DNA of 56,441 bases from Parcubacteria group bacterium GW2011_GWA2_43_13 (GCA_000999025.1 LCFM01000009.1:1-56441), one strand, 5' to 3'. Positions 643 to 15,725 are shown, counted from the stretch's first letter. Translations and numbers: made by a program. Notes: a model not told the origin generated them from the letters alone.

Positions 643-1095
643 TTAATGCTGAACTGATAGCGCTGTTATATTTCCAAATGTATCATGTTTAAGATGATTT
701 TGCATCATACGGTACTGCACGGTACGTAGATATTTTGTATCTTCATATTCCCGTAAAATAGCTTGCTGATAGTGCATTTTTAATAAATTATTACGAACCA
801 CAATGGGTATGCCAAGTAATATTGCTTGTTGTTTAAGTAGTGGACTATCACATGTTGCGATATTCACTACATCTATCCTATCCTTGCCAATAGCACTACT
901 CACCTCGCCCATTAAACCAATTTCTCTCTTAAAATACGCATCGCGTGGTACGACCTCATCAAATACAATAGCAATATCTATATCTGATAACGGGCCAGGG
1001 TTACCAGAGACATGCGAACCGAATAAATACGCCAAAACAACCTCTGGATGCGAGGCAAACACGGTTTTTAACGTTGCTAACAACTCTTCATTCAT
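643..1095 (-). CDS. mntA: MntA-type minimal nucleotidyltransferase antitoxin
   Basis: 150-aa ORF with LFGSHVSGNPGPLSDIDIAIVF, the GSxxxG...DxD Pol-beta-type NTase motif. It is paired with hepT. Confidence 0.85.
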   Translation of the reverse strand: MNEELLATLKTVFASHPEVVLAYLFGSHVSGNPGPLSDIDIAIVFDEVVPRDAYFKREIGLMGEVSSAIGKDRIDVVNIATCDSPLLKQQAILLGIPIVVRNNLLKMHYQQAILREYEDTKYLRTVQYRMMQNHLKHDTFGNITALSVQH

Positions 1096-1394
1096 ATCTT
1101 TATTGCGTCAATAATGATTGTATTATAGCATACTAAAAGATAAGAATCCAAACGACCTAACACTTCCAAACCTACGAGAGTGGCTGTCGCCGAATGTGAT
1201 TCCGCAATGACCGCGCAAATAACAATTTTTAGATAACCTCACGCTGATTTTTTAGGAAAATTTAGCAAAGAATGACAAAAACACGCCCATTTAGGGTGCT
1301 GTTTTGTTATAAAATTTACTAAAGCAGATTCCATCATTTTTCCCACTAAATTTTACAATTTGGCTAATATTAGCAAATATATGTCTATTTATAC

Positions 1395-1423
1395 TTGACA
1401 ATATCAATTTTACATGATAGAAT
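1395..1423 (+). promoter_or_regulatory. Sigma70-like promoter P1
   Basis: TTGACA 1395-1400, a 17-nt spacer, TG at 1415-1416 (extended -10), TAGAAT 1418-1423. Confidence 0.55.
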
Positions 1424-1488
1424 GACGGGTCAAAATCAAATACAGAAACTTATTCAGACATAACGGGAACTATAAAGAAAATATAGCG

Positions 1489-1517
1489 TTGACAAATATA
1501 GTTAAGTATGTTATAGT
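1489..1517 (+). promoter_or_regulatory. Sigma70-like promoter P2
   Basis: TTGACA 1489-1494, a 17-nt spacer, TG at 1509-1510, TATAGT 1512-1517. It lies 94 bp downstream of P1 in the same orientation. Confidence 0.6.
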
Positions 1518-1523
1518 ATACCT

Positions 1524-2312
1524 GCACAATCAAACAAAATCTTGAAGGAGAGAGCAAGATGACGATTCTTTACACCAAGGTGTTAAGAAGTACTGCTATC
1601 CCCCAAAAGATTGCCCTACTTCTTAGCACCTTATTTGCATCCCCATAGCGCACCACGAATATGCCCACCCGAAGAACGGATTCGTAGATTCGGATGTATT
1701 CGCAGATTAGGATTGCCCCCGTAGCGAGAAACATGGAGAGGAGAGAGGAGAACACTTACCACCTCATGGGATGGTTCACCCCTACCCGCGGGATGGCAAG
1801 GAAAAGCAAGCTCTTTGAGCACAGGCAAACCATATTTATTGGCCTACAAACTCAAAGTTAGCGCTCAACATTGATCTTCTCCATATTCCTCGCTGCGATC
1901 CGAGCTTTATGCAAAGAATCGCAGCGATCACAACATTATATGTGCAAAAAGTTTTGAGCAGATAGCCCCGTCCCTCACTTGGCAACAAGTGCGGGATAGA
2001 GGAGAGAGTATCACTCAAGATTTTATGCCTAACACTGTCACACTCTCATGAAAGTGAGGGTTGAGGATACGGAGTTATACCACTATCCATCCGCCAGCCG
2101 GCGGACGGAACGGCCAACAACTGTACTCCTCCGGTGTGGGTCTGACAGGACCCATGCTGACGTGCGAACTTCCGAACCGAGTTTACTCGGTGAGGAAGGC
2201 AGGCGGAGATGAGATGCTTGCATCTCCACCTACCTTCCTTGTAAGAGGAATGATCTTTGCAACCAATCCACGGCTCGCCATGCGTTTTTTATAAAGCTCG
2301 TGGCGAGTCGTG
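1524..2312 (+). ncRNA. Candidate large structured RNA or long structured 5' leader (unclassified)
   Basis: About 790 nt with no ORF longer than 77 aa on either strand. It is G+C-rich, unlike the AT-rich promoter zone. Hairpins occur in series at 1890-1927, 2090-2105, 2137-2154, 2177-2190, 2194-2238 and 2271-2310, with G.U pairs that only work on the + strand. Confidence 0.35.
1559..1648 (+). CDS. Possible 29-aa small hydrophobic/leader peptide (MTILYTKVLRSTAIPQKIALLLSTLFASP)
   Basis: ATG at 1559 is preceded by GAAGGAGAG (1544-1552), about 35 nt after the predicted P2 start site. TAG at 1646-1648. It is too short for the ORF track. Confidence 0.25.
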   Translation: MTILYTKVLRSTAIPQKIALLLSTLFASP

Positions 2313-2353
2313 GAATTTCTCCACGGCACAACTCCGGAAGGAGTAACGACAAG

Positions 2354-2941
2354 ATGGCCATAAAGGTTGTCTTGGCCGGACCTCCTCGGTCCGGAAAGTC
2401 CTGCTTAAGGGAAGGTCTTAAGCAGGCGATACGACGGATTCCGGGCGCGCCGTATCCCTATGTGATCACGGCTTGCCCGGACGGCGAGGGTTCATGGTTC
2501 CAGGAAACTGTGAACCAAAACCCGGAGCTCGCGGCGGCGTGTAAGGTGGCTTACAAAGCCAAATTCACGCCGGAATTCGTGAAGCGGATCGCAACTTCGG
2601 TCGCGAACTGCCCGCTCGAGCTCACGCTCGTCGACATCGGAGGTATCACCTCCGTTGAAAACGAAGCGATTTGCTCGAGCGCCACTCACATGGTGATCCT
2701 CGCGGGTGATACCGCGAAGTTCGCCGAGTGGCGCGAATTCGCCAAGAAGGTAGGACTCGTGGTGGTAGCGGAAATCTTTTCCGACTACCACGGCACCCAA
2801 GATGTTGTTCCTCAATTGGGCGAGGACAACATCTGGCGGGGATCTGTTCACCACCTCGAGCGGGGTGAACAAGTCGCCGAGCGCCCGACTGTTCAGGCGC
2901 TTGCCCAAATTCTTGTTGAATTGGCAACTCTACAAGAATAA
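2354..2941 (+). CDS. P-loop NTPase of unknown family, adjacent to the Csx3-like gene
   Basis: ATG 2354 is preceded by GGAAGGAG. Walker A is VLAGPPRSGKS and a Walker B/DxxG-like motif is ELTLVDIGG. No further family-specific motif was recognised. Confidence 0.6.
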   Translation: MAIKVVLAGPPRSGKSCLREGLKQAIRRIPGAPYPYVITACPDGEGSWFQETVNQNPELAAACKVAYKAKFTPEFVKRIATSVANCPLELTLVDIGGITSVENEAICSSATHMVILAGDTAKFAEWREFAKKVGLVVVAEIFSDYHGTQDVVPQLGEDNIWRGSVHHLERGEQVAERPTVQALAQILVELATLQE

Positions 2942-3075
2942 TCCTCTGCCCTGCGATTGAATGCGTTACCACATCCAATCGCAGTAGTCATCAACACTAC
3001 CCGCTAAGGCGGGGCCTTTCCCAAGTAGCCATGCTTGGGTGGTAATAAAGGTTTCTCCAATGAGAGGAGAACAAC

Positions 3076-3381
3076 ATGGCTTACTATAAGGTCGAGATAA
3101 TCGAAAGAGGCGAAGCGACAACACTCCGGCTCGCATTCGGCGAGCCCGCACAGAACGACGTGATCGTCCGCGATGCCGTCGCGGCGGTCCAAGCCCTCAA
3201 CCTCGAGGGGGGCAAGGTCATCCGGCTGAACGGGCCTGCGTCTTTGCCGGTGGCGATCGCCATCGGACATGTCGTCGCGCACCTGTACGGTGCCGTGGCG
3301 GCTTTCGACCCGAAACTCGGGAAGTATGTCGTGGCGGTGAGCCACGACCCCGAATTCGAAATCGGACAACTCATCGACTAG
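3076..3381 (+). CDS. csx3: Csx3-like protein (Csx3/Crn3 fold: cA4 ring nuclease / RNA deadenylase family)
   Basis: 101 aa, with GAGAGGAG ahead of the ATG. The core GKVIRLNGPASLPVAIAIGHVVAHLYGAVAAFDPKLGKYVVAVSHDPEFEIGQLID aligns by eye to A. fulgidus Csx3 as I remember it (GVVISGRGPIWLHCFLAHKYHHTPFVAVYDPRLGAVVVQSHSELREGDVIDV). Confidence 0.65.
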   Translation: MAYYKVEIIERGEATTLRLAFGEPAQNDVIVRDAVAAVQALNLEGGKVIRLNGPASLPVAIAIGHVVAHLYGAVAAFDPKLGKYVVAVSHDPEFEIGQLID

Positions 3382-4161
3382 GAGAGTTGCCCATATCCAC
3401 ACGTTTTGCCACCGTTTTAACGAAAATGGTGGGGATAGCCTGCTGGCTTTCGCATGAGGCGCTTTGCAACTATACATCATCAACGCGCGCCTCTTGGTGG
3501 AAGGATATTCGTTCGCGCGAATAACACCTCCGCCTTCTCTCCAGCTTGCAAGTTGAAGCAGAGGGCAAAAAAACTGTTGACAATTAACTTTTAACTGTTA
3601 ACACGTTCTCACTTCAATAATAACTGATCGATCAATACTGCCTTAGAGGATCGCTTCCTCTCCCAAGCATAGGCAACAGAATGGGTAGAACGACACACCC
3701 TTTTATCCCCTCTCAAGAGGGGAACTAAAATATCCTTCCTTGAGGAGGGATAAAGGAAGGTATTATACCTTCTAATCATTCTGCTGTCTGTAATACAGTA
3801 AAAATAGATAATCCAAACAATAAGATGCTGAATAGCGTGCAGAGTGTGAGGTTTAAGAGCCCTCTTGCCCCACATTCTGCAGTTCTGTTCATCATCAAAA
3901 AAGAGGGCATTATATATATGGTTTAAAACATCTTTATCACTAACTCCAAAAGAGGGCTCGCGATTTTTCATCGCACCCTCTTTTCGCTGTTTGCACGCTT
4001 CAAGCAAGCAGTCGTCCACTCTCTTACTAATAAGAGAGAAAAAGAACTTGTTGATAGGCATGGAGATTTCAGAATGAAATCTATCTCACACGATAGATAC
4101 TCTCTCCTCCATTCTGTTCTCCGTGCCTACCAAGATGTTCTTTGATATTACCTCACCCCAA

Positions 4162-4184
4162 CCCTCTCCTTTCAAGGAGAGGGG
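4162..4184. repeat. Palindromic element CCCTCTCC-TTTCAA-GGAGAGGGG (same family as 52876-52966)
   Basis: Inverted repeat read directly from the sequence. It lies just upstream of the PHP gene start. Confidence 0.6.
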
Positions 4185-4219
4185 GGAAGTATGACAACCG
4201 CAAGAAAGGCGGTGATGAT

Positions 4220-5077
4220 ATGTTCGATTTCCAACTACACTCAACTGCTTCGGACGGGACATTGCGCCCGAAAGAAGTGGTTGCGCTCTGTGCGCGCAAT
4301 GGCCTCAAAACCATTGCAATCACCGATCACGACACTGTTGCCGGCGTTGAAGAAGCGCTGACAGCGGGATCGAAATTCGGTGTACGCGTCATTCCAGGGT
4401 GCGAACTTTCGGTGGAACACAATGGCCAGGAGTTCGATATCCTGTGCTATCACATTGACCACCGGAACCTCGCGCTGGTTGAGCGTATGGCGTTTTACCG
4501 CCAAGTGCGCATTGAACGCGCCCACGCGGTAATCGCAAAACTCCAGAAGCAAGGGTTTGCGATCTCGTTTGAGGAGGTCGCAAAGATTGCGGACGGCAGT
4601 ATCGGCAGACCGCATATTGCCAAAGCAATCTTCCTCCACGCCAACAACGTGGAACGGCTTGCACAAATCGGGATCAAAAATCCGTTTGAGTTTGTCGGCG
4701 CGTTTATGACATCAGGAAAAGATGCCTATGTAGAGCGGGAGAAATTCCGTTTTGTAGAGGCGATCTCCCTGGTGCATAACGCCGGCGGTGTTGGCGTGTT
4801 GGCCCACCCGGGCTGGACATTCCGCAACGAATTCGAACAGCGTCTGCCGGCATTTCTTAGCGAGCTAAAATCGCTGGGACTGGATGGCGTGGAAACGTTC
4901 TATCGTACACACGAAGAACGCCACACGCGATTTGTCCATTCCTTGGCGGTTGAGCTTGATTTGAAAGAAACCGCAGGATCCGACTTCCACAATCCCGATG
5001 ATCCGATCTTCCATATGGTGGGAGCGTGGGAATCGTTTGGGATTGAAACCAACTTTGAGTGGATTACTCAACGATAA
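4220..5077 (+). CDS. PHP-domain phosphoesterase (TrpH/YciV, RNase AM-like)
   Basis: MFDFQLHSTASDGTLRPKEVVALCARNGLKTIAITDHDT is the canonical PHP N-terminal HxH...DH metal motif. The start is trimmed to ATG 4220, because the upstream part of the ORF runs through a REP-like palindrome. Confidence 0.85.
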   Translation: MFDFQLHSTASDGTLRPKEVVALCARNGLKTIAITDHDTVAGVEEALTAGSKFGVRVIPGCELSVEHNGQEFDILCYHIDHRNLALVERMAFYRQVRIERAHAVIAKLQKQGFAISFEEVAKIADGSIGRPHIAKAIFLHANNVERLAQIGIKNPFEFVGAFMTSGKDAYVEREKFRFVEAISLVHNAGGVGVLAHPGWTFRNEFEQRLPAFLSELKSLGLDGVETFYRTHEERHTRFVHSLAVELDLKETAGSDFHNPDDPIFHMVGAWESFGIETNFEWITQR

Positions 5078-5144
5078 ATCCGCTCGCGGGGAGAGATGTT
5101 TACGTTTCTCCTCCCCTGCTTTGAGCATATTTTGACCACATGTT

Positions 5145-5172
5145 GTAGAGACGGGGTTAACCCCGTCTCTAC
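5145..5172. repeat. REP-like palindrome GTAGAGACGGGGTTAACCCCGTCTCTAC
   Basis: Perfect 28-nt palindrome, and a member of the GTAGAGACGCCCC...GGGGCGTCTCTAC family seen at least 7 times in the window. Confidence 0.8.
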
Positions 5173-5269
5173 ATGGATGGATATACAAAAAATACTTTCA
5201 AACAAGGGCGCGATCTTTGAAATACCACCCCTTATTCCCTCCTTCAAAAGGATGGGACACTCTGATGAC

Positions 5270-5330
5270 GATGATAGTCGCGAGTGCGGCTGATGGTTAT
5301 ATATCATCATCTGCGCTCGCGGCTATCATC
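5270..5330 (+). promoter_or_regulatory. Long RNA hairpin (26-position stem, 9-nt loop) in the leader of the 5375 gene
   Basis: 5270-5295 pairs with 5305-5330, with 1 mismatch and 3 G.U pairs. The G.U pairs would be C.A mismatches on the other strand. No U-tract follows. Confidence 0.5.
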
Positions 5331-5374
5331 CGATAGCTGAGAATTCTCAACAACATCTCTGGAAGGAGATTTTC

Positions 5375-6679
5375 ATGACACGGTTAGTGTTTGGATCCGG
5401 CCGGTTCGCCGATGTTGTGGCGAACAACCGGAATGATATCATCGTCGGCCCATACGATATGCCGACGAAGTTGGTGGACGTCCGCAAGGATGTCTTGCTG
5501 TGCCTCCCGCAGGAGGTTGGCACGTGGGGCAACTACCCCACGCACCAGGAGAGCTGGCTTGCTCTCCCGTTCGTCGTGACCTGCCACAGTAGCCACACGG
5601 ACGAGGCGGGACTAGATGTCCGCCGCTCAGCGTGGGACGCAATCCCCGTCGCGCAGTGGCCGGCACTCATCGCGAAAGCGGCTGAGTTTGCCGAAGAGTT
5701 CCGCAGCCGTCTAACCGACGCCGGTCTGACGCCCCGCAAGGCGTTCAAGTCGGCAACCCGCGCACTGCAAGACTGCTTGCTGTATGCCGTGGAGCGCAAG
5801 TTCCCGGCACAGCAGGACGTGTTCTTGCAGGACTCCGTGATCGCCCCGCTCGTTGCGGAAGCGAATCGCGGCCGGGCAGGTGAACTCGATCTCGCTGCCG
5901 GTCTCGTGCTTGCCGATACGATCGATGCCCTCGTGGCAAAGATCGCCGGTGAATTCGGTGGGCTCGACGCATGCCGCAAGGCGCTCGGCGAACTCATGAC
6001 CGACTCGCGTGTTGGGCGGGTGATCCTCCTCCCGGAGGGCATTTCGCTTGATCGCGGGGCCGAGCTCGTTGTGGGCGACATCGTGATCGGTGTTCCCGAC
6101 ACGCACGACATGGACATCGTCTCTGTCGTGAATGGTCAGGAAGCGCCAGTGCTCATCCAACTGAAAGACGAGCTGTCGGGTCAACGGCTCGACATCATGG
6201 CGGTCGCCTCGACGCTCGGCGCGAACGAGCAGCTTTCGGGCGGACATCCGGCCTTTCAGTCGGTGGCAGAAATGCTGCTGGCGAATGGTACGGCCCGCAC
6301 CCCCGAGGGCAGCGCGCTTGTCGCGCGGCTCGCAGGCGAAGTCGACCCCGTCGCTCTTGCTCAGAAATACCGGACGGTTGCAAAGGAGTTCTACTCCGAT
6401 GCTTCCGACCGGAAGAGCTGGGCGGCTCGGCGGGCTGGAAACTTGCCGCAGGTCAAGAAAGCGATCCCGCTCTACCGGATCGCTTGTGACCTACTCCCGC
6501 GCGCCGCCTACATGGAACGCGCCGGGAAATTCACCGGCGGATTGGATATCGCCATCCTTGCCGAGTCAGCCGGACTCGGCAAGGTGTACGCCGCGATCCG
6601 ACAAATCATGGATCGCCAGGATGCAACTCAAGACGAGCTTGAGCATATTGCATCGGCGATCGAAACCGTTCTTTCCTAG
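5375..6679 (+). CDS. Hypothetical protein, 434 aa, no recognisable domain
   Basis: Long ORF in the G+C-rich island with GGAAGGAG 8 nt before the ATG. The antisense ORFs across it look like high-GC artefacts. Confidence 0.6.
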   Translation: MTRLVFGSGRFADVVANNRNDIIVGPYDMPTKLVDVRKDVLLCLPQEVGTWGNYPTHQESWLALPFVVTCHSSHTDEAGLDVRRSAWDAIPVAQWPALIAKAAEFAEEFRSRLTDAGLTPRKAFKSATRALQDCLLYAVERKFPAQQDVFLQDSVIAPLVAEANRGRAGELDLAAGLVLADTIDALVAKIAGEFGGLDACRKALGELMTDSRVGRVILLPEGISLDRGAELVVGDIVIGVPDTHDMDIVSVVNGQEAPVLIQLKDELSGQRLDIMAVASTLGANEQLSGGHPAFQSVAEMLLANGTARTPEGSALVARLAGEVDPVALAQKYRTVAKEFYSDASDRKSWAARRAGNLPQVKKAIPLYRIACDLLPRAAYMERAGKFTGGLDIAILAESAGLGKVYAAIRQIMDRQDATQDELEHIASAIETVLS

Positions 6680-6697
6680 AACTTTTGCTGAGCACAA

Positions 6698-6835
6698 TGC
6701 GACCTCGCATGCGCAACGTGCTCTCCTTTCTTCTCCACTGATTGCTCACGCAATAAATGGAGAATCGAAGGAATAACCCGTCACACTCTGCCATGGCAAA
6801 ATGGTCAGAGTTCTCAACGAAAGGCAAAAAGATGG
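6698..6835 (+). repeat. Duplicated intergenic leader module, copy 1 (138 nt)
   Basis: Identical to 7483-7633 except for a 13-nt insertion in copy 2. It contains hairpin 6724-6772 and the palindrome TGCCATGGCA. Confidence 0.85.
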
Positions 6836-7467
6836 GCGCGCTCCTAATAGAAGCGTTGCGCAAATACTTCGTGACGCGACGTACCCGGCGATTCGTCGCC
6901 GATGCATACGCGGGGAAGCTGGGACCAGGACGACTTGTCGTCCTGGTAACCGTGGCGGGATACCGCCTCGCAAGGGTAACGATAAACCCCCACCGCCACC
7001 ACCCCGTCAATGAAAAGCACGTCGTCTACCACGACGATGTGCTGTCGCCATATGATCTCGACATGCTTACAAAACAATATATCGAGGTTACAATGGCAGG
7101 AACGACTGAGGAGGAGCGTGAAGAGCTCCTTGGTCGCTTCCTAAAAGAAAAACGGGTGTGGATTCACCGAGGGGCGAGAGAGAGCGTTTTTTCGCTCTTC
7201 TCAGAAGAAACCCGAGAGGCGACCATGCCCCCAGGGACAAAAATCAACTGGGGATACTGGGATTCCCCTGACGATTTCTTCGACGTTTATGGCATTGTCA
7301 TAAATGGCAATACCCTGGCGATCCGGGCGTTTACGATGCACGGAGAACTGTGCTGGTGGGGGAAAACGACCGACTGGTCGTTTAATCCCAAAAACGTCCT
7401 CTACGGGGAGGGGAGAACCCCGTTGACAACAGAGGAGAAAGATTTATTGAGAAAGCTTTTGCCTTAA
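6793..7467 (+). CDS. Hypothetical protein (about 224 aa; alternative start at 6832)
   Basis: The ORF begins inside repeat copy 1. Its first 14 codons (MAKWSEFSTKGKKM) are nucleotide-identical to those of the next gene. The ATG at 6757 is out of frame in copy 2, so it is unlikely to be the start. Confidence 0.5.
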   Translation: MAKWSEFSTKGKKMGALLIEALRKYFVTRRTRRFVADAYAGKLGPGRLVVLVTVAGYRLARVTINPHRHHPVNEKHVVYHDDVLSPYDLDMLTKQYIEVTMAGTTEEEREELLGRFLKEKRVWIHRGARESVFSLFSEETREATMPPGTKINWGYWDSPDDFFDVYGIVINGNTLAIRAFTMHGELCWWGKTTDWSFNPKNVLYGEGRTPLTTEEKDLLRKLLP

Positions 7468-7482
7468 CACCGCCGTGCACGT

Positions 7483-7633
7483 TGCGACCTCGCATGCGCA
7501 ACGTGCTCTCCTTTCTTCTCCACTGATTGCTCACGCAATAAATGGAGAATCGAAGGAATAGATACGGACACCCACCCGTCACACTCTGCCATGGCAAAAT
7601 GGTCAGAGTTCTCAACGAAAGGCAAAAAGATGG
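7483..7633 (+). repeat. Duplicated intergenic leader module, copy 2 (151 nt, 13-nt insertion at 7561-7573)
   Basis: Compared directly with 6698-6835. Confidence 0.85.
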
Positions 7634-7911
7634 ACGCTGAACGCGGACATCTATTTCTCTTGCGGCTTTTGAAGGATAATGATATCCCCATGGACGGGGA
7701 TGATCTGGAAAAAGCCATTGAGATTGCGTCGCGAAAGTTGCCTTCTGGCGCTTTTGATGAGGCGCAACGCCACTACATAACGCGACATGGGAACTACGTC
7801 TCTCTTGGCTATCTTACATACGCCAAAGGAGTACGGTGGCTTGCCATGTTGCGTCGTGAGTCTGGTCAAGCCGCGTTTGACGCGGCATGCGACGCTTTGC
7901 GTCGCACCTGA
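7591..7911 (+). CDS. Hypothetical protein (106 aa; alternative start at 7630)
   Basis: The ORF starts in repeat copy 2. No domain recognised. Confidence 0.45.
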   Translation: MAKWSEFSTKGKKMDAERGHLFLLRLLKDNDIPMDGDDLEKAIEIASRKLPSGAFDEAQRHYITRHGNYVSLGYLTYAKGVRWLAMLRRESGQAAFDAACDALRRT

Positions 7912-7955
7912 CACCTCCCCCCACCTTCCTCAAGGGTGGAAGAAAGGAAATATCG

Positions 7956-9046
7956 ATGAACGAGCTGTTGCGTCAGGCACTGGGGATTGTCCCCAAGGTT
8001 TCGCGAATTTCTGCCGAAGTCCTCGTCAGTCACATTGACCGTGACGACGAAGTGAGAGCCGCGTGGCTTGCGCTGGTCAGCGGACGGCCGGCGTTCTTCC
8101 TCGGATCTCCCGGGGTTGATAAAACCGGAACAGTTCAGGCGATCGCATCGCGAATCGCCGGAGCCGTGTTCTACGACGAGCTGATGCCGACTGTTGTGTC
8201 GGTGGAACAACTTTTAGTGGAGAGCACCTCCATTGAAGAAGTTCCACTCCCCAACGGTGGCAAGGCGATCCAAACCCGCGACCGCCTTGGCAAAGCGGCA
8301 AACGCGCATCTCGTCTTCGCGGATGAGATTTGGAAGTCCGAGCCCCGCGTGCTCAATATTTTGTTGGATCTCGCGCGCGGTGGCGAAGTTCGGCATGAGG
8401 GAAGGGTTGTCAAAACCCCGCTCCTCGCGTTCCTCGCCGCGAGCAACGAGCTGCCTGATCCCGAGGGCAACCTCGGCGCGCTCTGGTCTCGCATGACGAT
8501 TCGGCTGGTAACACAGCCACTGAATCGAGCGGGAAAATTCCACAGAACATCGTCAACATCGTCCTGGACATCTACCAGGAATTGGCTGACGAATCGTCCG
8601 CGGACTTCGCATGGCTGTGGTCGGACGACCGCCGATTCGGCCGGGTATTCGACATTCTGCAGGCACACGCCTTGCTGGAAGGTCGGACTCGGGTCGAAAA
8701 AACCGATCTGGCGGTGATGGAATGGCTGTGCTGGGACACGCCGGATCAAATCCCGACTGTCCGGGCAAAAATCCTTCCCTACTGCCGAACGCCGCTCATG
8801 GACGCGCAGGAAGCGATGGACGCACTCCTCGCTCCCGGCGGCACCGTGGAGTTGGTTCGTGTTGGAGATCGCGGCAAGGGCGTGCAAGCCATTCAACAAT
8901 GTGAAGCCGCCCTAACGGAGATGAAAAATCTCCAAAACTCCGCCACAGACACGGCGATGTCTGCAAAAATCGGTGAGCTGATCCAACAGCTCGAATCGGT
9001 TAAGCAGGATGTTGTCGCCGTTGTCACCGGGACACGGAGGTTGTAA
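7956..9046 (+). CDS. RavA/MoxR-like AAA+ ATPase, split by a -1 frameshift at 8531-8537 (frame-0 ORF ends at 8717; the -1 frame continues to 9046)
   Basis: Walker A is FFLGSPGVDKTG and Walker B is HLVFADEIWKSEP. The -1 frame carries the RavA-type lid, WLWSDDRRFGRVFDILQAHALLEGRTRVEKTDLAVMEWLCWD (compare RavA SDRRW...LLQASAF..GR...DL...CLW). The joined product is 363 aa. Confidence 0.75.
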
Positions 9047-10668
9047 TGGCAAAAAACATTCGCCCACTCTCGCGACAGGAACTACTGTCGCCTGCGGTGA
9101 CGGATGTGGATGCCTTTACGGCACTCCGATACATCCGTCACCGCGAAACGGTGCCGGCATTACCAGAACTTGAGGACAAGGGAAACCCCCAACTCCCCGG
9201 ATTTGAGTCCGCTCTGCTTGATCTGTACCACGCGCTCTGGTCTCCGGAGCCGCAGGTGAAGGATCAAGTACCGCCGGACAGGCAATACTGGCAGACGCTT
9301 CTTGGTCAGGCAATGGCAACATCTGCCTACCAAGAAACACACGGCTACACCTCCTTGAAGGAGTTTGAGTCCGTCATCGGCACCATCAGCATGGCAGAAA
9401 CCGTGCTTACATTGGTGCCAGAAAAGGACAAAAAACAACTTCAAAAAACCACAGCCGCACAACAAGAAGCCAACCAAATGCAAGAGCAATCGGACCAGGC
9501 GCAAGCCAATGCCGATACTCTCCAGCAGCTGACTGATACCGCGCAAGACGCTGCTGCCTCGGGCAACCACCCGGGCATGTCAGCCCAAGAGGCACAAGCC
9601 CGCGCCAACCAACTTAGCCAGCAAGCGACACAGGCGAAAGCCGATGCCCAAGCTGCGCAAGAGTTGGCGCAAGAATCCGCGTTACAAGCAGAGATCGCCG
9701 CCGAGGAGTTGCTTGGAAAACCCGGAAGCGAGCAAGCGGAGCAAAAACTCCGTGAGCTCACCGGCATTGGCATCCAAGCACTCAAGAAAACCCAAGCCAA
9801 GGTGGAGGAGTTATCCGAAACCATAGAGGCATGGGGACTTGAGCCGGCGGAACTTTCGCAACAGCCCATTCCGGAAGCGCTCGCTCTGCTTGAGCGAATG
9901 CGAAAGAATGAGCACATGCGAAAATTCGCAGCTTTGCTCGGCCGCGTCCGCAGAATCGCGACAAAAAAGGCAAAAAACAAAATCGCCGGCGAGGGCGCGC
10001 GTATGACGAGAACAGAAACCGGGCGCGATATCAAACGCGCGCAACGGTCTGAACTTGTGGCGCTCACCTCGTCGCACCTGCGCTACCCAGCGCTCACGCG
10101 CTGGGCGCATGGCGAGCTTCGGCTCGTTAGCCAACAAACCAAGCAAAAATTAGGCCATGGTCCGGTGATCGTCTGCGAAGACGGATCCGGTTCCATGGAC
10201 GGAGCAAAGCAACAATGGGCCAAGGCAGTCACGCTGTCTTTGGCAACATATGCCAAGCTCCAAAAACGCACCTTTGCCTGGATTCTGTTTGACGCCAGAG
10301 TGCAAAAACAGAAAACATTCCAGGGTGGGAGCGTTTCTCCCAAGAATATGCTGGATATTGTTGAGGCACAGGCTGGTGGAGGAACGGATTTTGAGAAACC
10401 ACTGCGCGCCGCCATGGAGTTGGTAAAGACGCAAGGCCTTAAAAAAGCCGATATCGTGTTTATCACCGATGGCGAATGCGCGGTTTCCGCCTCGTTCCTC
10501 AAAGAATTTCTGGCTGTCAAAGCAGGGTTGGATGTCAACATCATCACTGTTCTGTGTGATGTTGCGTCCGCGACCGCAGAGACGGTCAAGAAGTTCTCAA
10601 CCACGGTCGAAAAGGCCTCCGGCTTCACGGCAGAAGAAGCCGAAAACAAAATCATCAAATATCTATGA
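9046..10668 (+). CDS. ViaA-like VWA-domain protein (partner of the AAA+ ATPase)
   Basis: The start overlaps the upstream stop (TAATG at 9044-9048). The C-terminal VWA domain has the MIDAS motif VIVCEDGSGSM, then ...GGGTDF...ADIVFITDG. The middle region is Q/A-rich and coiled-coil-like. Confidence 0.8.
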   Translation: MAKNIRPLSRQELLSPAVTDVDAFTALRYIRHRETVPALPELEDKGNPQLPGFESALLDLYHALWSPEPQVKDQVPPDRQYWQTLLGQAMATSAYQETHGYTSLKEFESVIGTISMAETVLTLVPEKDKKQLQKTTAAQQEANQMQEQSDQAQANADTLQQLTDTAQDAAASGNHPGMSAQEAQARANQLSQQATQAKADAQAAQELAQESALQAEIAAEELLGKPGSEQAEQKLRELTGIGIQALKKTQAKVEELSETIEAWGLEPAELSQQPIPEALALLERMRKNEHMRKFAALLGRVRRIATKKAKNKIAGEGARMTRTETGRDIKRAQRSELVALTSSHLRYPALTRWAHGELRLVSQQTKQKLGHGPVIVCEDGSGSMDGAKQQWAKAVTLSLATYAKLQKRTFAWILFDARVQKQKTFQGGSVSPKNMLDIVEAQAGGGTDFEKPLRAAMELVKTQGLKKADIVFITDGECAVSASFLKEFLAVKAGLDVNIITVLCDVASATAETVKKFSTTVEKASGFTAEEAENKIIKYL

Positions 10669-10690
10669 GACGCTCCAACGGAGTCGTCTC
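10667..10690. repeat. REP-like palindrome variant GAGACGCTCCAACGGAGTCGTCTC
   Basis: It has the same GAGACG/CGTCTC arms as the REP family and lies right after the VWA gene stop. Two more hairpins follow at about 10695-10730 and 10740-10775. Confidence 0.6.
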
Positions 10691-10859
10691 TACAACATCC
10701 TGCCACGAGGGGAGTTATTACACGACTCCCCTCTCTCCCCGAGCCAACTGTTGTTTAATAGGAGTTGGTTCGGTCAAGGGATTCACCTGTCGTTGCTTTA
10801 CCAACCTACGGTGGCGAAGCAATCTCTTTCAACCCACTTTCTCCTGAAAGGAAATTATC

Positions 10860-13532
10860 GTGGCAGAAGAAAATATCGCCCTCGTCACACCCCAAAAGGG
10901 AAAAAAATGGGATGAGAACCACGAGTGTATCGCCGACCATACAGTCGGTAAAAAAATGCACATCGTGTTCTTGCCGCGAGAAGCACAGCCGGACCAACAG
11001 GTCAGGGTGCGGCTTCAAGAAATTCGGCCTGATGGCCGCGGCAACATGATGTACCGCGGCTTGCCCGCGCCGGTGGAATACATCGAACGCTGGCGCGATA
11101 ACGGCGACGGCACTGCCTCGCGCGTCACCATCTCCCGCGACTGGCTAATGGAAGAACGCGAGGAAGGGGTTATTGAACCCCGCCCGCTTGAAAAGCGGGA
11201 AGGCGAGCCCCTAACCCCAGAAATTACATACTCAGTGGTGTGGGGGGGGAACTCGCTGGAGGACTCTGTGATTGTTGAGACCTCCTCCCGCTGCTATCCG
11301 CAACAGATTGAAGTGGTCAAAGACAATACGATCGTCTGGACCACAGAATCCTACCGCAAGGAGGAGATGGGCAAAAAAACGTTCCATCTCACCCGTCTCT
11401 CCTTAATAGCGAGTACGTTGCGTTCCAGTCGTCTTGCGGTACTGTACACGCCGGACATGGCGGTGAGTGTACGTGTGGGCTACGAAAAAGACAGTGTGCA
11501 AAGAGAGCACACTCACGACACTACTTGGGCTGAAATGCCTGCGTGGTGGCAAGCAGAGCACGAGGCGCAATATCCTCTATGCCTCTGTGGCCGCTACCGC
11601 ATTGAAACGCAAGCCGACGGCTACCCCAAGTGCGAAAAATGTCGCGCCGAGGAAACCTGTGTCCGGTGTTCCAAAAAACCGGTAAAGGTTAAGAACTTCT
11701 CCGGCCGACTGATCTGCACTGTGTGTGAGCCGTACGAGGAGCGCGAGGCCATGATTGAGCGGTCATTCCCTGTTTCCAAACGGGAAGAAATCGCCAATAT
11801 AGCAAAAAAACTCCTCGCCGGCGAAGCATTGCCGCGTGAAACAGGTGAAGTGATCTTGGCGGCAACACTGGATCACATCACCGACGAATCGCGACGCAAC
11901 TCCATCCTGCGCATACAAAAAGAGTACCCTTGGTACTACTTCTGCGAGGATGGAGTGTACGGCTCGCGGTTCCCGAGGGAAACGTTAGAACTGCTCACCT
12001 ACCTTCCCCTTTCAAGTGGAAACGCTCTTGTTGAAATGGTTGCCTGGACCATTGAATGCGACAAGGGTTCCATGCGCGTTGAAGACAGTTTCTTCGCGCA
12101 AAACTTCTACCAGCAGACCCAGATAGCAGGAAAAACAGAAACCCCGACTTTTTCAGAGGCAGGCCTGAATAAGGCCATCGTCGCCGAAAAAATTCGGGGG
12201 AACGAAAGGGATCGTAAAGATTCAGTGCGTCGTTATGCTAAGCTTGCGCAAGCACTTGGCGAACACGACAAACGGATCGAAACGATCCGTGAACGACTCA
12301 ACGCGGATGCGCAGAATTATTCAAGGGCTCTGCAAGAAATTGCAACCATTGAACAGTTCCTGTATAGCATCCAAACGGGCGAAATCTGGCCGGCGGTCCG
12401 TATCAGCCGGCACACAGGCCGCCATTCCAGCCTAACGGTGTGGGCCATTACTGATGATGGATCTCTTCTTGAAGAGTCCAGCAACAGTGATAAAAACACC
12501 GCCGCTTTCGGGGACATCCCAACCTCCACCCTGATCGTGGGCTGGGGGTATGGCTCTCAAGAGAGCCGTTGTAGCGAGAGCTGGCGCATTGAGCGCCGGC
12601 CGGGCGAAAAAGAAAATCGCTGGGAGACCAAACCCGGCGACTACCGCCCGGTAACGGCGAAACAAGTAGAAACACTAAACCGCCTTCGGGGAGAACATAC
12701 AAAGTACTTCTCGGCAGGCGAAGAACTCGGTTGGGATACACGAACTTGGAAACAAGTTACTGTAACAACCGAGGCGTCCCAGTACCTCGTCGGTCAGGAA
12801 GCTACAGACCACGAAGAGATGTTGGCACGAATGCCACTAGATATCTCGGAGTGGTTTGTTGAGTCATCGGAATCCGAGTGGGAGCGTGTGTACACAGTAC
12901 ACCACCGCCCATGCGGATCTTCTCGCCCCAAAGGCGATGACGAACTGCGGTGGATTGAGGCGGCAGTGAAAGCTGAAGAAGGGAAAACCCCTTCACGAGC
13001 TGTTGCCGAAATCGCCCGCGACCTTGCCGAGGTCGCACGACTAACCAAAGGAGCCAAGGGTGGTCATGGAACCATCCGCCTCGAAAAGCGACACGGTCGC
13101 TACCCTTGGCAGAAACGTCGCGAAAACCTCCTCAATATGCTCCACGGTATTGAGGAATACGAGGTAATTGACCGCATCATGGAGCTTCGGATTGGAAGCG
13201 ACCTTGATGCAGTCATCGTTGGAGCAATGGCCTGGCTCGATTCTCGCCGTCTTTCCGTCGTGAGTCCCACGCGGAAAACGGCTGATCCAGCCACCGAGGC
13301 CACAGTCGCGAATGAACCCGCCGAGGGAGTAACCGACAAACCGTCTGAAAAGGCGGGTGTCGTGTTCACCTACCTCGGCAAAATCGGCGGACATCTCCGC
13401 TTCCGGTGTGGCTGTGCCTTCACGGATGCCCTGACAAAAACCGAGGCCCAAAACCTCGGGGACAAAGGATCCGTGGAAATCACCTGCCCGGGTTGCGGAA
13501 AAAACGGCATCGTAAAGAAAGGCGATGCCTAA
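10860..13532 (+). CDS. Large hypothetical protein (890 aa) with clustered zinc-ribbon motifs
   Basis: CLCGRY..KCEKCRAEETCVRCSKK...ICTVCEP gives four Cys pairs mid-protein, and FRCGC...TCPGCGK lies at the C-terminus. No catalytic motif recognised. A GTG start is assumed after AAAGGAAA, so the start is uncertain. Confidence 0.6.
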   Translation: MAEENIALVTPQKGKKWDENHECIADHTVGKKMHIVFLPREAQPDQQVRVRLQEIRPDGRGNMMYRGLPAPVEYIERWRDNGDGTASRVTISRDWLMEEREEGVIEPRPLEKREGEPLTPEITYSVVWGGNSLEDSVIVETSSRCYPQQIEVVKDNTIVWTTESYRKEEMGKKTFHLTRLSLIASTLRSSRLAVLYTPDMAVSVRVGYEKDSVQREHTHDTTWAEMPAWWQAEHEAQYPLCLCGRYRIETQADGYPKCEKCRAEETCVRCSKKPVKVKNFSGRLICTVCEPYEEREAMIERSFPVSKREEIANIAKKLLAGEALPRETGEVILAATLDHITDESRRNSILRIQKEYPWYYFCEDGVYGSRFPRETLELLTYLPLSSGNALVEMVAWTIECDKGSMRVEDSFFAQNFYQQTQIAGKTETPTFSEAGLNKAIVAEKIRGNERDRKDSVRRYAKLAQALGEHDKRIETIRERLNADAQNYSRALQEIATIEQFLYSIQTGEIWPAVRISRHTGRHSSLTVWAITDDGSLLEESSNSDKNTAAFGDIPTSTLIVGWGYGSQESRCSESWRIERRPGEKENRWETKPGDYRPVTAKQVETLNRLRGEHTKYFSAGEELGWDTRTWKQVTVTTEASQYLVGQEATDHEEMLARMPLDISEWFVESSESEWERVYTVHHRPCGSSRPKGDDELRWIEAAVKAEEGKTPSRAVAEIARDLAEVARLTKGAKGGHGTIRLEKRHGRYPWQKRRENLLNMLHGIEEYEVIDRIMELRIGSDLDAVIVGAMAWLDSRRLSVVSPTRKTADPATEATVANEPAEGVTDKPSEKAGVVFTYLGKIGGHLRFRCGCAFTDALTKTEAQNLGDKGSVEITCPGCGKNGIVKKGDA

Positions 13533-13678
13533 TGTTCTTTCCCCCCTCTGCCCACGTGCTTGGCAGAGAAGGGTTTAACCCAAAGCACAAGAGAGGAATG
13601 GTTGGCTTGAGAATAGCAACCATTCCCCCTCTCCTGAAACGCAGAGTATGGTGTTCTGTATTTCAGCCGGAGGGATTC

Positions 13679-14026
13679 ATGAAAAAATTATTGTGGCTGT
13701 CACGCCACAATCCGCTTCCAAAACAAATCGCCGAGCTTCAACGGATCTTTGGAGAGGTTGATGTCCGTCAGGATGTCAATGAGTTCTCCAACGCCGAAGA
13801 AATTTACCGGCGATACCGCAGCGGTGGGTACGACGACATCGTTGTCGTCGCACCCTTGTCCGTCATCGCGCGGTTAATTGACCTTGGCATCAAGCCTCTC
13901 TGGGCACAGATGGACCAAGTCAGTGATCGCAAAAATGCGGATGTGGTTGCAAAAAACCGATTCTATAGGTTCCACCACTTCCGCCGCATCAAAGCCGTGG
14001 TCATGGAGTTTGAGGAGCTTACCTGA
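13679..14026 (+). CDS. Hypothetical small protein (115 aa)
   Basis: ATG 13679 is preceded by GGAGGG. The stop abuts the next gene's start (TGAATG). The upstream part of the tracked ORF overlaps the previous gene and some hairpins. Confidence 0.5.
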   Translation: MKKLLWLSRHNPLPKQIAELQRIFGEVDVRQDVNEFSNAEEIYRRYRSGGYDDIVVVAPLSVIARLIDLGIKPLWAQMDQVSDRKNADVVAKNRFYRFHHFRRIKAVVMEFEELT

Positions 14027-14773
14027 ATGATGAACAAGATTGAAACGCTTCTCAAAAACTTTTCAGAGTTCTGGCTTCACTTCTTTCCGGAAGCCGGAAC
14101 GCTCGACCGCCAGCAGGTGCTGACGGAACTGGACGACGCGGACTTTGGACGGGATAGTACCCGTCCGGATTGCCAACTCGTTAGTTATCAAAACTGTGTC
14201 GCCACTGTGTACGGCGCCTATGAACAGGCGCGTTTCCAAGTGGCGGCCATGGGGCACATATTAAGATCCGTCCGGCAGTTCCCTGCCGGTGGGACACTGG
14301 TGTCCCTCGGTTCAGGACCTGGCTCGTACGAGCTCTGGCTGTTGCTCAACAGCCAGCTCGGGAAAGTGATCCTTGTTGATCACAGTTCCGAGATGCTGGC
14401 GCGGGCCACGAGCATCGCCAAGGAAATCGGCGTGGCGGATCGGTTGCAGACCATCTGCACCGACGCCACGCAAAACAGCATTCCGCCACATACGGCGGAT
14501 GTCATTTTCTCCATCAACGCTCTCCACTGGTCATCCGGCTGGCGAGCGTGGTTGCGAGAAGCGGCGCGGGTTGGTAAACCCGACGCCGAGGTATTCATAA
14601 GCTGCTCGTTGCTCCATCCGCGTAGCAACATCACGCCCGATCAATTCGGGCAAGCAACGCGTGAGTACTTCAATATATCAAAATTCGATATGGTGGTTCC
14701 GCCGCGGCAGATGCCGGACGGACAAACCGCTGTATCGAGCCGCTTCTTCTTTGCGGGAACAAAGAAGCGATAA
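14027..14773 (+). CDS. Class I SAM-dependent methyltransferase
   Basis: Motif I is LVSLGSGPGSYELWLL, the post-I acidic motif is ILVDHSSEML, and DVIFSINALHW is the type-11/12 MTase pattern. Confidence 0.75.
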   Translation: MMNKIETLLKNFSEFWLHFFPEAGTLDRQQVLTELDDADFGRDSTRPDCQLVSYQNCVATVYGAYEQARFQVAAMGHILRSVRQFPAGGTLVSLGSGPGSYELWLLLNSQLGKVILVDHSSEMLARATSIAKEIGVADRLQTICTDATQNSIPPHTADVIFSINALHWSSGWRAWLREAARVGKPDAEVFISCSLLHPRSNITPDQFGQATREYFNISKFDMVVPPRQMPDGQTAVSSRFFFAGTKKR

Positions 14774-14788
14774 TGCACCTTCCCGCAC

Positions 14789-14822
14789 GGCGTCGCTGTT
14801 TACAAACGACGACAGCGACGCC
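14789..14822 (+). terminator. Hairpin (11-bp GC-rich stem) at the end of the island operon
   Basis: GGCGTCGCTGT (14789-14799) pairs with ACAGCGACGCC (14812-14822) and is followed by TCTTCTCC. Confidence 0.5.
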
Positions 14823-14831
14823 TCTTCTCCC

Positions 14832-14869
14832 CCGCACCTATTATTGAAAAAAATCAATAATAGGTGCGG
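14832..14869. terminator. Perfect 16-bp hairpin with an A6 loop
   Basis: CCGCACCTATTATTGA-AAAAAA-TCAATAATAGGTGCGG. Confidence 0.5.
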
Positions 14870-15012
14870 AGTCAGAGGGCTGGTGAGTGGTGTTTGATTC
14901 AAAGAGGAGATGATCTCTTTATCCGCAAGGATCAAAATCTCTCTCCTCAGAGCTCGTCTCCTTGGCGACTCGGATTGCCACTCCCCAGCCCTTTGATTTT
15001 TTTCCCATCACA

Positions 15013-15246
15013 CTACTTCCGCAAAATCCTTACAAATTCTTCCGGCGATACCCCGATATCACGCAATATGGCATGAAGCGTCCCGCGCGGAATATCTTTA
15101 CCCTGATGCCGAGACACTACAGTGCGTCTGCCATCCGCGTGCGCAAACACCAAATGCGCGCTACCGCTTTCCGCGTGTTCAAAAAACCCGAGCTGTTTTA
15201 ACACTCGGATAAGCTCTCTGTCTTTTATCATCGGCAGTTTAGGCAT
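15013..15246 (-). CDS. hicA: HicA toxin (YcfA-like mRNA interferase)
   Basis: 77 aa; KDRELIRVLKQLGF....GSAHLVF.H.....VVSRHQGKDIPRGTLHAILRDIG is the HicA pattern. Confidence 0.85.
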   Translation of the reverse strand: MPKLPMIKDRELIRVLKQLGFFEHAESGSAHLVFAHADGRRTVVSRHQGKDIPRGTLHAILRDIGVSPEEFVRILRK

Positions 15247-15511
15247 ACACGCGGCGAGAGGATTTCTTTTTCAAAGAAGTTCGCGGAGTAAACGAAACTG
15301 TTGCAACAAACTCAAACCCATTATCCTGTGGCACATCCAAACCATCCACAATTAAACTGCGAATATACACATCAATAGCATCTTGAATATTTTTTCGCGC
15401 TTGGTTGATGGACTCACCCCATGTATGACACCCGGGCAATGCCGGCACATAGGCATGAAAGGTGTTGCGTTCATCTGGTTCAATAATAATTCTGTATGTA
15501 TATGATTGCAT
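15239..15511 (-). CDS. hicB: HicB antitoxin (UPF0150 fold)
   Basis: YTYRIIIEPDERNTFHAYVPALPGCHTWGESINQARKNIQDAI. It overlaps hicA by 8 nt. The start is trimmed to Met13. Confidence 0.8.
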   Translation of the reverse strand: MQSYTYRIIIEPDERNTFHAYVPALPGCHTWGESINQARKNIQDAIDVYIRSLIVDGLDVPQDNGFEFVATVSFTPRTSLKKKSSRRVYA

Positions 15512-15653
15512 AACATTTTTACAATACCACACCTCACCCTCAAACACAACATTCTGCGCACGACTCCTCTGTTCTTAAAACTCCCTATCCGCTTATATAC
15601 AGGCGGATGCGAGGTCAGATCAATTTCTTTATAAACAAAAAAAACATCTGACG

Positions 15654-15725
15654 GGTGGCCAGAGGGAATTGAACCCTCGCTAGCGAGACCACAACCCGCT
15701 GTTCTACCATTAAACTATGGCCACC
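15654..15725 (-). tRNA. tRNA-His (GTG)
   Basis: Hand-folded cloverleaf. The anticodon loop TTGTGGT gives GTG. G-1 pairs with C73, the His identity feature. T-loop is TTCAATT. Confidence 0.85.

Follow-up and report, generated by a model that had tools for sequence, protein, structure and literature searches.

A recurrent MoxR-VWA operon with an AAA-Csx3-type module in bacteria of the candidate phyla radiation

A stretch of 56,441 nucleotides (nt) from Parcubacteria group bacterium GW2011_GWA2_43_13 (GCA_000999025.1, LCFM01000009.1:1-56441), which we call the window, carries toward its left end a run of co-directional genes richer in G+C than the DNA around it. The original prediction, made from the sequence of the window, placed eleven genes in an island at 1395-14869. 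It likened their mixture of enzymes to RNA-repair and conflict systems, with the degradation of cyclic-oligoadenylate (cOA) signals as an equally open alternative. What kind of system is this, and does it exist elsewhere? We find that three of the genes, coding for a MoxR-type ATPase, a VWA protein and an 890-residue protein designated BIG, form the core of a conserved and laterally spreading system, previously undescribed and largely confined to the candidate phyla radiation (CPR, or Patescibacteria). A P-loop/Csx3 module lies upstream of the core in most loci, and the space between is a variable slot that holds a phosphoesterase, members of the 434-, 106- and 115-residue families described below, or the Unk_01/C3a69 family. 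We tentatively read it, with somewhat less than even confidence, as a conflict module linked to a nucleotide signal, serving either defence or counter-defence and operating without CRISPR-Cas.

The case for a system comes from its recurrence. Scans of genomes and metagenomes gave 28 related loci (denoted by L numbers), almost all of them in CPR bacteria (Doudna-, Sacchari-, Harrison-, Uhr- and Liptonbacteria), and the island proteins were compared with these by tblastn. The MoxR-VWA-BIG triad is invariant in about 20 non-redundant loci; in every locus that reaches far enough in the upstream direction, the three genes stand side by side in a constant order. The P-loop gene, either with a separate csx3 gene or as a P-loop-Csx3 fusion, lies upstream on the same strand and within 5 kb in 13 of the 15 loci whose upstream sequence is long enough. 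Thus the genes do occur together in other genomes, as the original prediction had proposed to check. One locus, L016, is a near-complete replica of the island, with genes for the P-loop protein, Csx3, a PHP phosphoesterase, the 434- and 115-residue proteins, MoxR, VWA and BIG in that order, and has an integrase near the system. In another, L021, a CBASS-type oligonucleotide cyclase (PADLOC 2.6e-55; Pfam SMODS) and PDC-S01 (5.6e-105) lie directly downstream of the system, at 12120-15412 on the minus strand, which gives that copy a defence-island setting.

The upstream module begins with a P-loop NTPase of 195 residues (2354-2941, plus strand), its start codon taken as called in contig L034. The protein corresponds to the 'AAA' half of AAA-Csx3, matching the PADLOC models Csx3-AAA (PDLC01045, 1.9e-59) and AAA-Csx3 C3a67 (PDLC01059, 1.3e-34), and has a Walker A motif GPPRSGKS with invariant PDGEG and DxGG motifs. 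It has no match in Pfam or NCBIfam, and the family alignment (A7) gives GTPase-like, weak matches in the PDB. The next gene (3076-3381, plus strand) encodes a standalone Csx3/Crn3-like protein of 101 residues (Pfam Cas_csx3 9.4e-5; PADLOC Csx3-AAA, N-terminal part, 6.3e-17). It aligns end to end with the A. fulgidus protein of the Crn3/Csx3 ring nuclease family (AfCsx3; 6yud/3wzi, E 0.01). The standalone CPR clade keeps a GH..AH...FDPK motif that aligns with the H57-H61/D69 region of AfCsx3. In the ring nuclease the catalytic residues are H60 and D69 (AfCsx3 numbering), and its cleavage of cyclic tetra-adenylate depends on Mn. The Asp of FDPK aligns with D69, and the conserved His pair falls at or beside H57/H60/H61, where the placement of the gap is ambiguous. 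The fused AAA-Csx3 copies have lost this His/Asp motif, and therefore look like sensors only.

Together the two genes, separated by 134 nt, are a split member of the AAA-Csx3/Csx3-AAA family. Fusions of 404-467 residues occur in L007, L011, L015, L018 and L019; Pfam Cas_csx3 is found in the fused versions of L007 and L011, and PADLOC C3a67 in L007 (5e-40). The original prediction had found no match to a named system. This stands insofar as no PADLOC system model is matched beyond the Csx3/AAA accessory entries, but it does not hold for the P-loop and Csx3 proteins themselves, which match AAA-Csx3. That family has been described only as an accessory of type III CRISPR systems, with the function of the ATPase domain not known (PMC6546367, PMC12409355, PMC9676260). 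Compared with those accessories (clusters 35 and 67, C3a67; Shah et al. 2019, PMC6546367), both domains are homologous and sister loci have the same fused form. The differences are that there are two separate genes in the window, that they are embedded in a MoxR-VWA operon, and that the window shows neither cas genes nor a CRISPR array, none being noticed in related loci either. No CRISPR-like array is present in the 56-kb window, and there is no cas match among the island proteins scanned nor among the Pfam families listed (25 of 62) for 84 neighbouring open reading frames (ORFs) in 20 related loci.

The core starts with the gene of a MoxR-type AAA+ ATPase (7956-9046, plus strand; Pfam bpMoxR 8.4e-16, AAA_5, AAA_lid_8), which in the window is disrupted and runs in two frames. 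The original prediction was right to call it RavA-like, but overlooked a 124-nt deletion at 8537/8538 that removes 41 codons and shifts the frame. Intact homologues (401-407 residues) have 41 extra residues exactly at this junction, and contig L034, 99.9% identical to the window, has 124 extra nt bounded by GGAAA microhomology and encodes an intact MoxR of 404 residues. A programmed -1 frameshift at the heptamer G_GGA_AAA (8531-8537) was considered, and is ruled out by the extra residues of the homologues and the 124 nt of L034. Because of the frameshifting deletion, the copy of the system in the window is probably inactive. Sibling strains have lesions of their own, with an independent 2-nt deletion in moxR of L036 (at ~970 in that contig), an 11-nt deletion in the BIG gene of L054 (window 12007) and an insertion of ~52 nt near the 3' end of the BIG gene of L053 (window ~13318-13333). 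Intact alleles are found in L034/L040 and L042; among the assemblies, ERZ4903072, in its contig k141_2404987, and GCA_001818105.1 hold one. Four distinct frame-disrupting lesions in two core genes of strains that are 99.6-100% identical indicate recurrent loss of function, or relaxed selection, in the population.

The VWA protein (540 residues, 9046-10668, plus strand; Pfam VWA_2 3e-9, VWA_CoxE 6e-7) begins within the moxR stop codon, at the junction TAATG (9044-9048). Its N-terminal 360 residues are helical and rich in Q and A. The VWA domain, at residues ~370-480, is C-terminal with nothing after it, and the metal-ion-dependent adhesion site (MIDAS) DGSGS at residues ~376-380 is intact. The protein is 40-59% identical in all related loci, and the MIDAS and Walker motifs are intact across the family. 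Both proteins have full-length phage relatives (VWA, PHROG 24053, 3e-52; MoxR, PHROG 19600, 1.5e-21). Homologues occur in jumbo phages, and the phage relatives include Moorella phage MTATph1 and Bacillus phage 0305phi8-36.

BIG is encoded at 10860-13532 on the plus strand. It has a conserved N-terminal core of ~500 residues and a variable C-terminus. The core comprises beta-rich barrels like the oligonucleotide/oligosaccharide-binding (OB) fold, an invariant CxC...CxxC zinc site with an inserted zinc ribbon, and a helical domain; the AlphaFold2 model of the N-terminal 507 residues has a predicted local distance difference test score (pLDDT) of 90. Foldseek finds nothing at E<1e-3 in the PDB or BFVD, and the best local matches are OB folds, those of ExoVII (probability 0.95 over 71 columns) and superantigen-like proteins, with E > 0.01. 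There are 24 relatives in an index of 5.8 billion proteins, and a profile search of 1.84 billion representatives gave 330 clusters. Eleven members, ten of them longer or rearranged, have no Pfam match.

A MoxR gene that neighbours a vWA gene, together with a third conserved gene, recalls the MoxR-vWA-centric ternary conflict systems, whose third components are VMAP, iSTAND, FtsH or beta-propeller proteins (Kaur, Burroughs, Iyer & Aravind 2020, PMC7159879). The likeness extends to the best Pfam match of the MoxR protein, which is bpMoxR, to the variable and mobile neighbourhood, and to the accessory nucleotide-related enzymes. Csx3 is itself named among the effector domains of those systems (PMC7159879). 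However, the present system is not one of them on two counts. Its third component is new, since BIG belongs to none of the four families and its model shows neither a propeller nor a P-loop; and the domain order of the VWA protein is the opposite, the VWA domain being C-terminal with no fused effector, whereas theirs is N-terminal and followed by variable C-terminal effectors. In addition the P-loop-Csx3 module is linked to the operon here, and the hosts are unicellular CPR bacteria of reduced genome, where theirs are multicellular lineages.

The C-terminal position of the VWA domain resembles ViaA, CoxE and NorD instead, and not the vWA proteins of conflict type (PMC7159879). Could this be an ordinary chaperone-client set, in which MoxR-VWA would mature or metallate BIG or another complex in the manner of RavA-ViaA, CoxD-CoxE, NorQ-NorD and CbbQ-CbbO, with Csx3 a mere neighbour? 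The invariant Cys ligands of BIG and the failure to detect an effector domain are consistent with this, and MoxR-vWA pairs are known to act in virion and tail assembly (PMC7824862). Like these pairs, including p618/p892 of ATV and those of jumbo phages, the system has a MoxR with a lid, a C-terminal VWA/MIDAS partner, an overlapping stop and start, and phage relatives. Yet the scores against the NCBIfam models lie far below the equivalog cut-offs (RavA 75.5 bits against 681, ViaA 53.3 against 500), the client would be novel, and no LdcI, Nuo/Frd, Rubisco, NOR or virion genes are found nearby. A housekeeping set would also sit poorly with the patchy distribution, a G+C content above that of the host flanks in 7 of 7 loci, the flanking toxin-antitoxin and recombinase genes, the repeated inactivation in sibling strains, and the tight linkage, in those 13 of 15 loci, to sensors of CRISPR-accessory type. 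We therefore consider this explanation improbable.

The slot between module and core varies from locus to locus. In the window it starts with a PHP phosphoesterase of the TrpH/YciV type, correctly assigned in the original prediction (285 residues, 4220-5077, plus strand; Pfam PHP 1.9e-13). Among NCBIfam models it is closest to the 3',5'-nucleoside bisphosphate phosphatase NF041577 (3.6e-49, 4-258 of 276) and RNase RNM (7e-42), both below cut-off, and in the PDB it matches 9etk, 3e0f, 7ug9 (a 5'-3' exoribonuclease) and 2yb1 at 1e-23 to 1e-26 over ~270 residues. Its relatives are thus phosphatases of 3'-phosphoadenosine 5'-phosphate (pAp) and a 5'-3' exoribonuclease, and the similarity to the TrpH/YciV-type enzymes is full length. 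PHP is found in only about two other loci; elsewhere there is an HD_4 hydrolase instead, a SpoT/Mesh1-like protein of ~197 residues present in five related loci.

Next is a protein of 434 residues (5375-6679, plus strand) with invariant YPTHQ, D-x-H-D-x-D and GGHPAFQ motifs. Its family is strongly conserved, with 32 homologues, mostly from CPR. One of them, P0056, is fused to an HD_4/HD domain, and the family adjoins the system in L011, L016 and L030. It has no Pfam or PDB match; an apparent PDB match to Crov588 is an artefact of summed weak matches to a leucine-rich-repeat protein. Two smaller genes follow on the plus strand, at 6832-7467 (211 residues, or 236 from an upstream ATG) and 7630-7911 (93 residues, or 106). 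The 5' regions of both contain a direct repeat, the copies at 6687-6839 (153 nt) and 7472-7637 being 96-98% identical and including a common pseudo-N-terminus MAKWSEFSTKGKKM. The first of these genes is strain-specific, with no homologue in related loci, and resembles an inserted cassette whose arrival duplicated the intergenic leader. The family of the second lies directly 5' of moxR in at least six loci (L007, L015, L019, L030, L032, L025).

Two further genes lie beyond BIG. The first encodes a small alpha/beta protein of 115 residues with a flavodoxin/CheY-like fold (13679-14026, plus strand), with invariant S8, H10, Q16 and VAPL. Its family has more than 120 homologues at 43-68% identity. 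The AlphaFold2 model has a pLDDT of 97 and matches only generic Rossmannoid structures. The S-x-H...Q pattern suggested a ring nuclease of DUF1874/Crn2 type, and this idea was rejected because only generic CheY/flavodoxin-like folds, no DUF1874 structure and no Pfam match were returned. The family is found in seven related loci, beside MoxR in L003, L008, L016, L025 and L029, and in six IMG/VR contigs. In a Moorellaceae genome (L038, 8001-11889; GCA_049701195.1) it precedes MoxR (372 residues), VWA (473 residues) and DUF6744, in a region that also has an integrase, a holin and DarA_C and looks like a prophage. DUF6744, the third gene there, is not related to BIG (hhalign probability 0.1). The second gene, joined to the first through TGAATG (14024-14029), encodes a class I methyltransferase dependent on S-adenosylmethionine, as originally assigned (248 residues, 14027-14773, plus strand; Pfam Methyltransf_11/25, PADLOC mad2 MTase region 1e-13). 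This gene and the 211/236-residue one are confined to contigs of this strain and are missing from other related loci.

Other occupants of the neighbourhood include GNAT acetyltransferases, in two related loci, and a family of ~175 residues that matches PADLOC Unk_01 'sometimes fused to CARF'/C3a69 (6e-19). The latter, a second type III accessory family, lies beside the sensor module in L007, L015 and L019. A relationship between this family (f37) and the 115-residue family was considered and discarded (hhalign probability 1.5). The proteins that the original prediction could not name (434, 211/236, 93/106, 890 and 115 residues) have no match in Pfam, NCBIfam, PHROG or PADLOC.

Is the island a real feature of this genome? 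It extends over ~2.0-14.9 kb with all credible ORFs on the plus strand. G+C is 0.50-0.60 in every 1-kb bin over 2001-15000, compared with 0.40 left of the island and, for the most part, 0.38-0.47 right of it, and a 150-nt profile places the rise into the island at ~1600-2050. The sharp G+C step at both ends could suggest an assembly chimera, or a contaminant attached to a low-G+C genome. However, the order MntA-island-HicAB is repeated in six or more assemblies made independently, with different assemblers and from different samples (ERZ4903072, ERZ28564302, ERZ978281, ERZ28563625/641, GCA_001818105.1, JGI 3300025308, SRR29904088), and since the junctions are identical they are not chimeric. 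Host-type palindromes of the form GAGACG..CGTCTC, which the original prediction had used to the same end, lie both within the island and beyond it. A perfect one of 28 nt is found at 5145-5172 (GAGACG..CGTCTC at 5148-5169) and another at 10667-10690, with outside copies at 38765 and 39012; there are five matches against 0.01 expected. We regard the chimera explanation as refuted. The two outside palindromes (38765-38787 and 39012-39034) flank genes of tRNA-Lys and tRNA-Arg, where folding windows reach z = -10.8.

The flanks also bear out the original description. On the left are the toxin-antitoxin genes hepT (190-621) and mntA (643-1095), and on the right hicA (15013-15246), hicB (15239-15547), tRNA-His (15653-15724) and tRNA-Arg (15741-15814), all on the minus strand. 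What had been read as an integrase fragment at the left edge is cut only by the end of the window. In sibling contigs it is a complete tyrosine recombinase of 307 residues, followed by rpsO, a gene for an NYN protein, and pnp. Integration at tRNA-His with att repeats was examined and rejected, since the 3' end of the tRNA is not repeated between rpsO and the recombinase, and no empty, island-free site was found among 18 contigs carrying the neighbouring hicA.

Elsewhere in the window, 111 nt present in other assemblies are missing at 18646, and an identical Logan contig also lacks them. The gap splits a surface protein of 2027 residues (CarboxypepD_reg, PG_binding_1) into ORFs of 880 and 1121 residues, and other strains have further length variants (952+995 and 1775). 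At 52877-52966, between tRNA-Leu and tRNA-Val, there is a 33-nt tandem repeat of 2.7 copies with 81% matches.

The toxin-antitoxin and recombinase flanks and the phage relatives bring in a different possibility, that the system is counter-defence cargo of a mobile element. Csx3 would then linearise cyclic tetra-adenylate (cA4), the PHP or HD enzymes would finish the products, and MoxR-VWA-BIG would serve the element, for example in assembly or transfer. The standalone Csx3 retains the His/Asp motif and phosphoesterases recur in the system, and for viruses, ring nucleases are an established means of countering CRISPR (PMC12409355). The full-length PHROG relatives and jumbo-phage homologues of VWA and MoxR, the 115-residue family in IMG/VR contigs and in the prophage-like 115-MoxR-VWA-DUF6744 arrangement of Moorellaceae, and the foreign G+C, recombinase and toxin-antitoxin flanks all point the same way. 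On the other hand, BIG has no relative among the 2.9 million viral contigs of IMG/VR and no viral structural match. Nor are capsid, terminase or portal genes found near any of the loci. The absence of BIG from viral contigs and that of virion genes argue against a phage origin of the whole system. The fused AAA-Csx3, lacking the catalytic residues, suits a sensor better than a degrader, and neither att repeats nor an empty site could be found. We think it unlikely on balance that the system is such cargo, although the phage relatives of MoxR, VWA and the 115-residue protein may keep counter-defence alive beside defence.

What of RNA repair, the comparison that the original prediction had put forward? 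On this explanation the island would be an RNA repair or quality-control set, with a kinase-like P-loop protein, a phosphoesterase, an end-protecting methylase, a Ro60-like VWA protein with its AAA+ partner, and a cognate structured RNA. On paper the list does resemble Pnkp-Hen1, RtcB-archease and Rsr/Ro60-Y RNA. Among the PHP relatives are pAp phosphatases and a 5'-3' exoribonuclease, Csx3 was originally reported as an RNA deadenylase (as cited in PMC6546367), and BIG has OB-like and zinc-ribbon modules.

The non-coding sequence also counts for this reading. The region opens with two matches to sigma-70-like promoters on the plus strand, TTGACA-17-TAGAAT (1395-1423) and TTGACA-17-TATAGT (1489-1517), each agreeing at 11 of 12 positions and with a TG extension. 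These are the two top-scoring sites within 1000-15700, as the original prediction had noticed, though the total of promoter-like sites in the region is at chance level (10 found, 8.4 expected). Behind them is a hairpin-rich leader (1525-2353) whose predicted fold is well below that of shuffled sequences (z = -11.9 on the plus strand, -8.1 on the minus), also seen originally; a second such stretch, at 3382-4219, had not been stressed (3382-4215, z = -12.9 and -7.7). The two stretches, of ~0.83 kb each and with z near -12, flank the P-loop/Csx3 pair, and ORF-poor gaps of at least 1 kb precede the module in L003, L016, L019, L021 and L030.

The sole conserved sequence of the leader is a GA-rich motif of 14-23 nt, with a 23-nt match to L030. 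It lies 5' of the P-loop gene as GAGGAGAGAGTATC at 1999-2012, and its exact complement is found 2.1 kb downstream at 4096-4109, 3' of csx3, so that the pair, contained in a longer inverted repeat (I2; 1981-2012 and 4096-4127), brackets the P-loop/Csx3 genes. The motif recurs in L021 (~1560-1590) and L030 (~570-592), within the gaps poor in ORFs that precede the module. Directly 3' of the two promoters there is a 30-codon ORF MTILYTKVLRSTAIPQKIALLLSTLFASP (1559-1651) with a Shine-Dalgarno-like GGAGAGAG, overlapping the first long hairpin of the leader. A minus-strand ORF of 150 residues within the second stretch (3609-4061) has no family match. At the other end of the island the two closing hairpins of the original prediction (14789-14822 and 14832-14869, the second with 16 perfect pairs) are real and convergent with hicA; both lack a U-tract, and neither was scored as a terminator.

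Set against this, the non-coding stretches are not conserved in sequence, with blastn and nhmmer negative against 32 loci, and the leader has no Rfam match at E<=1. The upstream gaps are alike only within sub-groups (L021/L030, 69% over 655 nt; L015/L018), and five of them aligned too poorly for a covariance model to be built. No Y RNA, tRNA-like RNA or other Rfam match was detected, and there is no TROVE domain. For the P-loop protein, none of the polynucleotide-kinase profiles gave a match. The methyltransferase is a generic enzyme, different from the Hen1 type, and neither it nor PHP is a conserved part of the system. Above all no RtcB, ATP-grasp or other RNA ligase is found in the island or among the families listed for the 84 neighbouring ORFs, in agreement with the original prediction, which had recognised none. 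Because no RNA ligase is found the RNA-repair reading is not supported, and we hold it very doubtful. The evidence favours the cOA-related alternative, and cOA degradation, which the original prediction had also offered, is closer to it.

The excess of predicted secondary structure goes well beyond the two non-coding stretches and spans the whole island, coding and non-coding (2081-14880). A sliding scan of 160-nt windows gave a mean z of -3.8 on the plus strand and -2.9 on the minus, compared with -0.6 for the rest of the window (p ~1e-25), with a bias toward folding of the plus (sense) strand (p = 4.5e-4). When the null was made by shuffling codon order, the island genes averaged -3.8 and eight host genes -0.5 (p = 3e-16). 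In 1-kb checks BIG gave -6.95 and a host gene -1.10, and in L005 the VWA gene gave -10.16 and the RNR gene 0.02. The same is seen in 7 of 7 related CPR loci (L003, L005, L007, L016, L019, L021, L030) from different phyla-level lineages, where the system has z of -2.7 to -3.9 and the flanks -1.2 to -1.8, and a G+C content 3-14 points above that of each host. The excess is absent from MoxR-VWA modules of Firmicutes and phages. In three loci, L002, L020 and L025, the flanks are as structured as the system, so that the excess may be the mark of a broader class of island DNA in CPR bacteria.

One explanation, to which we give a small chance, is that selection favours dense secondary structure in the nucleic acid of the entire system, its coding regions too, wherever the system is found. 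The mRNAs may be shaped to withstand RNases specific for single strands, such as cOA-activated enzymes of Csm6/Csx1 type or HEPN/HicA toxins, and this could allow a Csx3-gated MoxR-VWA-BIG machine to be produced while an RNase-based shutdown is under way. Alternatively, there may be a single-stranded stage in the life of the element. If it does reflect genuine selection, the folding excess would be an unusual property for a DNA island of bacteria.

We return to the nucleotide-signal-linked conflict module. In the mechanism that we propose, the Csx3 domain would bind a cyclic or linear ligand of oligoadenylate type, and the standalone form, with its His and Asp retained, might also cleave it. 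The attached P-loop NTPase would couple ligand binding to the hydrolysis of nucleoside triphosphate, and the PHP or HD enzyme would clear the nucleotide products. The MoxR hexamer, recruited via the MIDAS site of the VWA protein, would then remodel BIG, which would act as a nucleic-acid-binding sensor or effector. The context is of conflict type, with toxin-antitoxin modules and a tyrosine recombinase at the flanks and repeated inactivating indels in moxR and the BIG gene. Pairs of MoxR and vWA with a third protein have been treated as conflict or threat-sensing systems (PMC7159879; PMC13622651), and experimental support for threat sensing by such modules is emerging (PMC13622651).

Several observations weigh against this proposal. 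A nucleotide cyclase or other source of signal is not part of the system, there is no cas10 or CRISPR array in the window, and the Pfam and PADLOC scans recognised a toxic effector domain in no component. The VWA protein does not have the layout of published ternary systems, with an N-terminal vWA and a C-terminal effector. The suggestion that BIG binds nucleic acid comes from OB-like and zinc-ribbon folds in the model, with weak Foldseek matches (E > 0.01), and the presumed catalytic competence of Csx3 from the alignment with the ambiguous gap. The coupling of the Csx3 module to the MoxR triad is genomic only, and as CPR genomes are poorly sampled the linkage could partly reflect a shared island history.

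The MoxR-vWA ternary theme gains a fifth architecture, whose third protein is confidently modelled and structurally unmatched, and the 434- and 115-residue families are now defined as targets. For the P-loop domain of Csx3-AAA, fused and split forms, and catalytic and non-catalytic versions of Csx3, can now be compared. CRISPR-Cas is reportedly uncommon in CPR bacteria. The AAA-Csx3 sensor module is found here outside its only known setting, type III CRISPR-Cas, in a recurrent and self-contained operon, and this hints that signalling of oligoadenylate type, or the suppression of it, takes place without CRISPR in CPR episymbionts.

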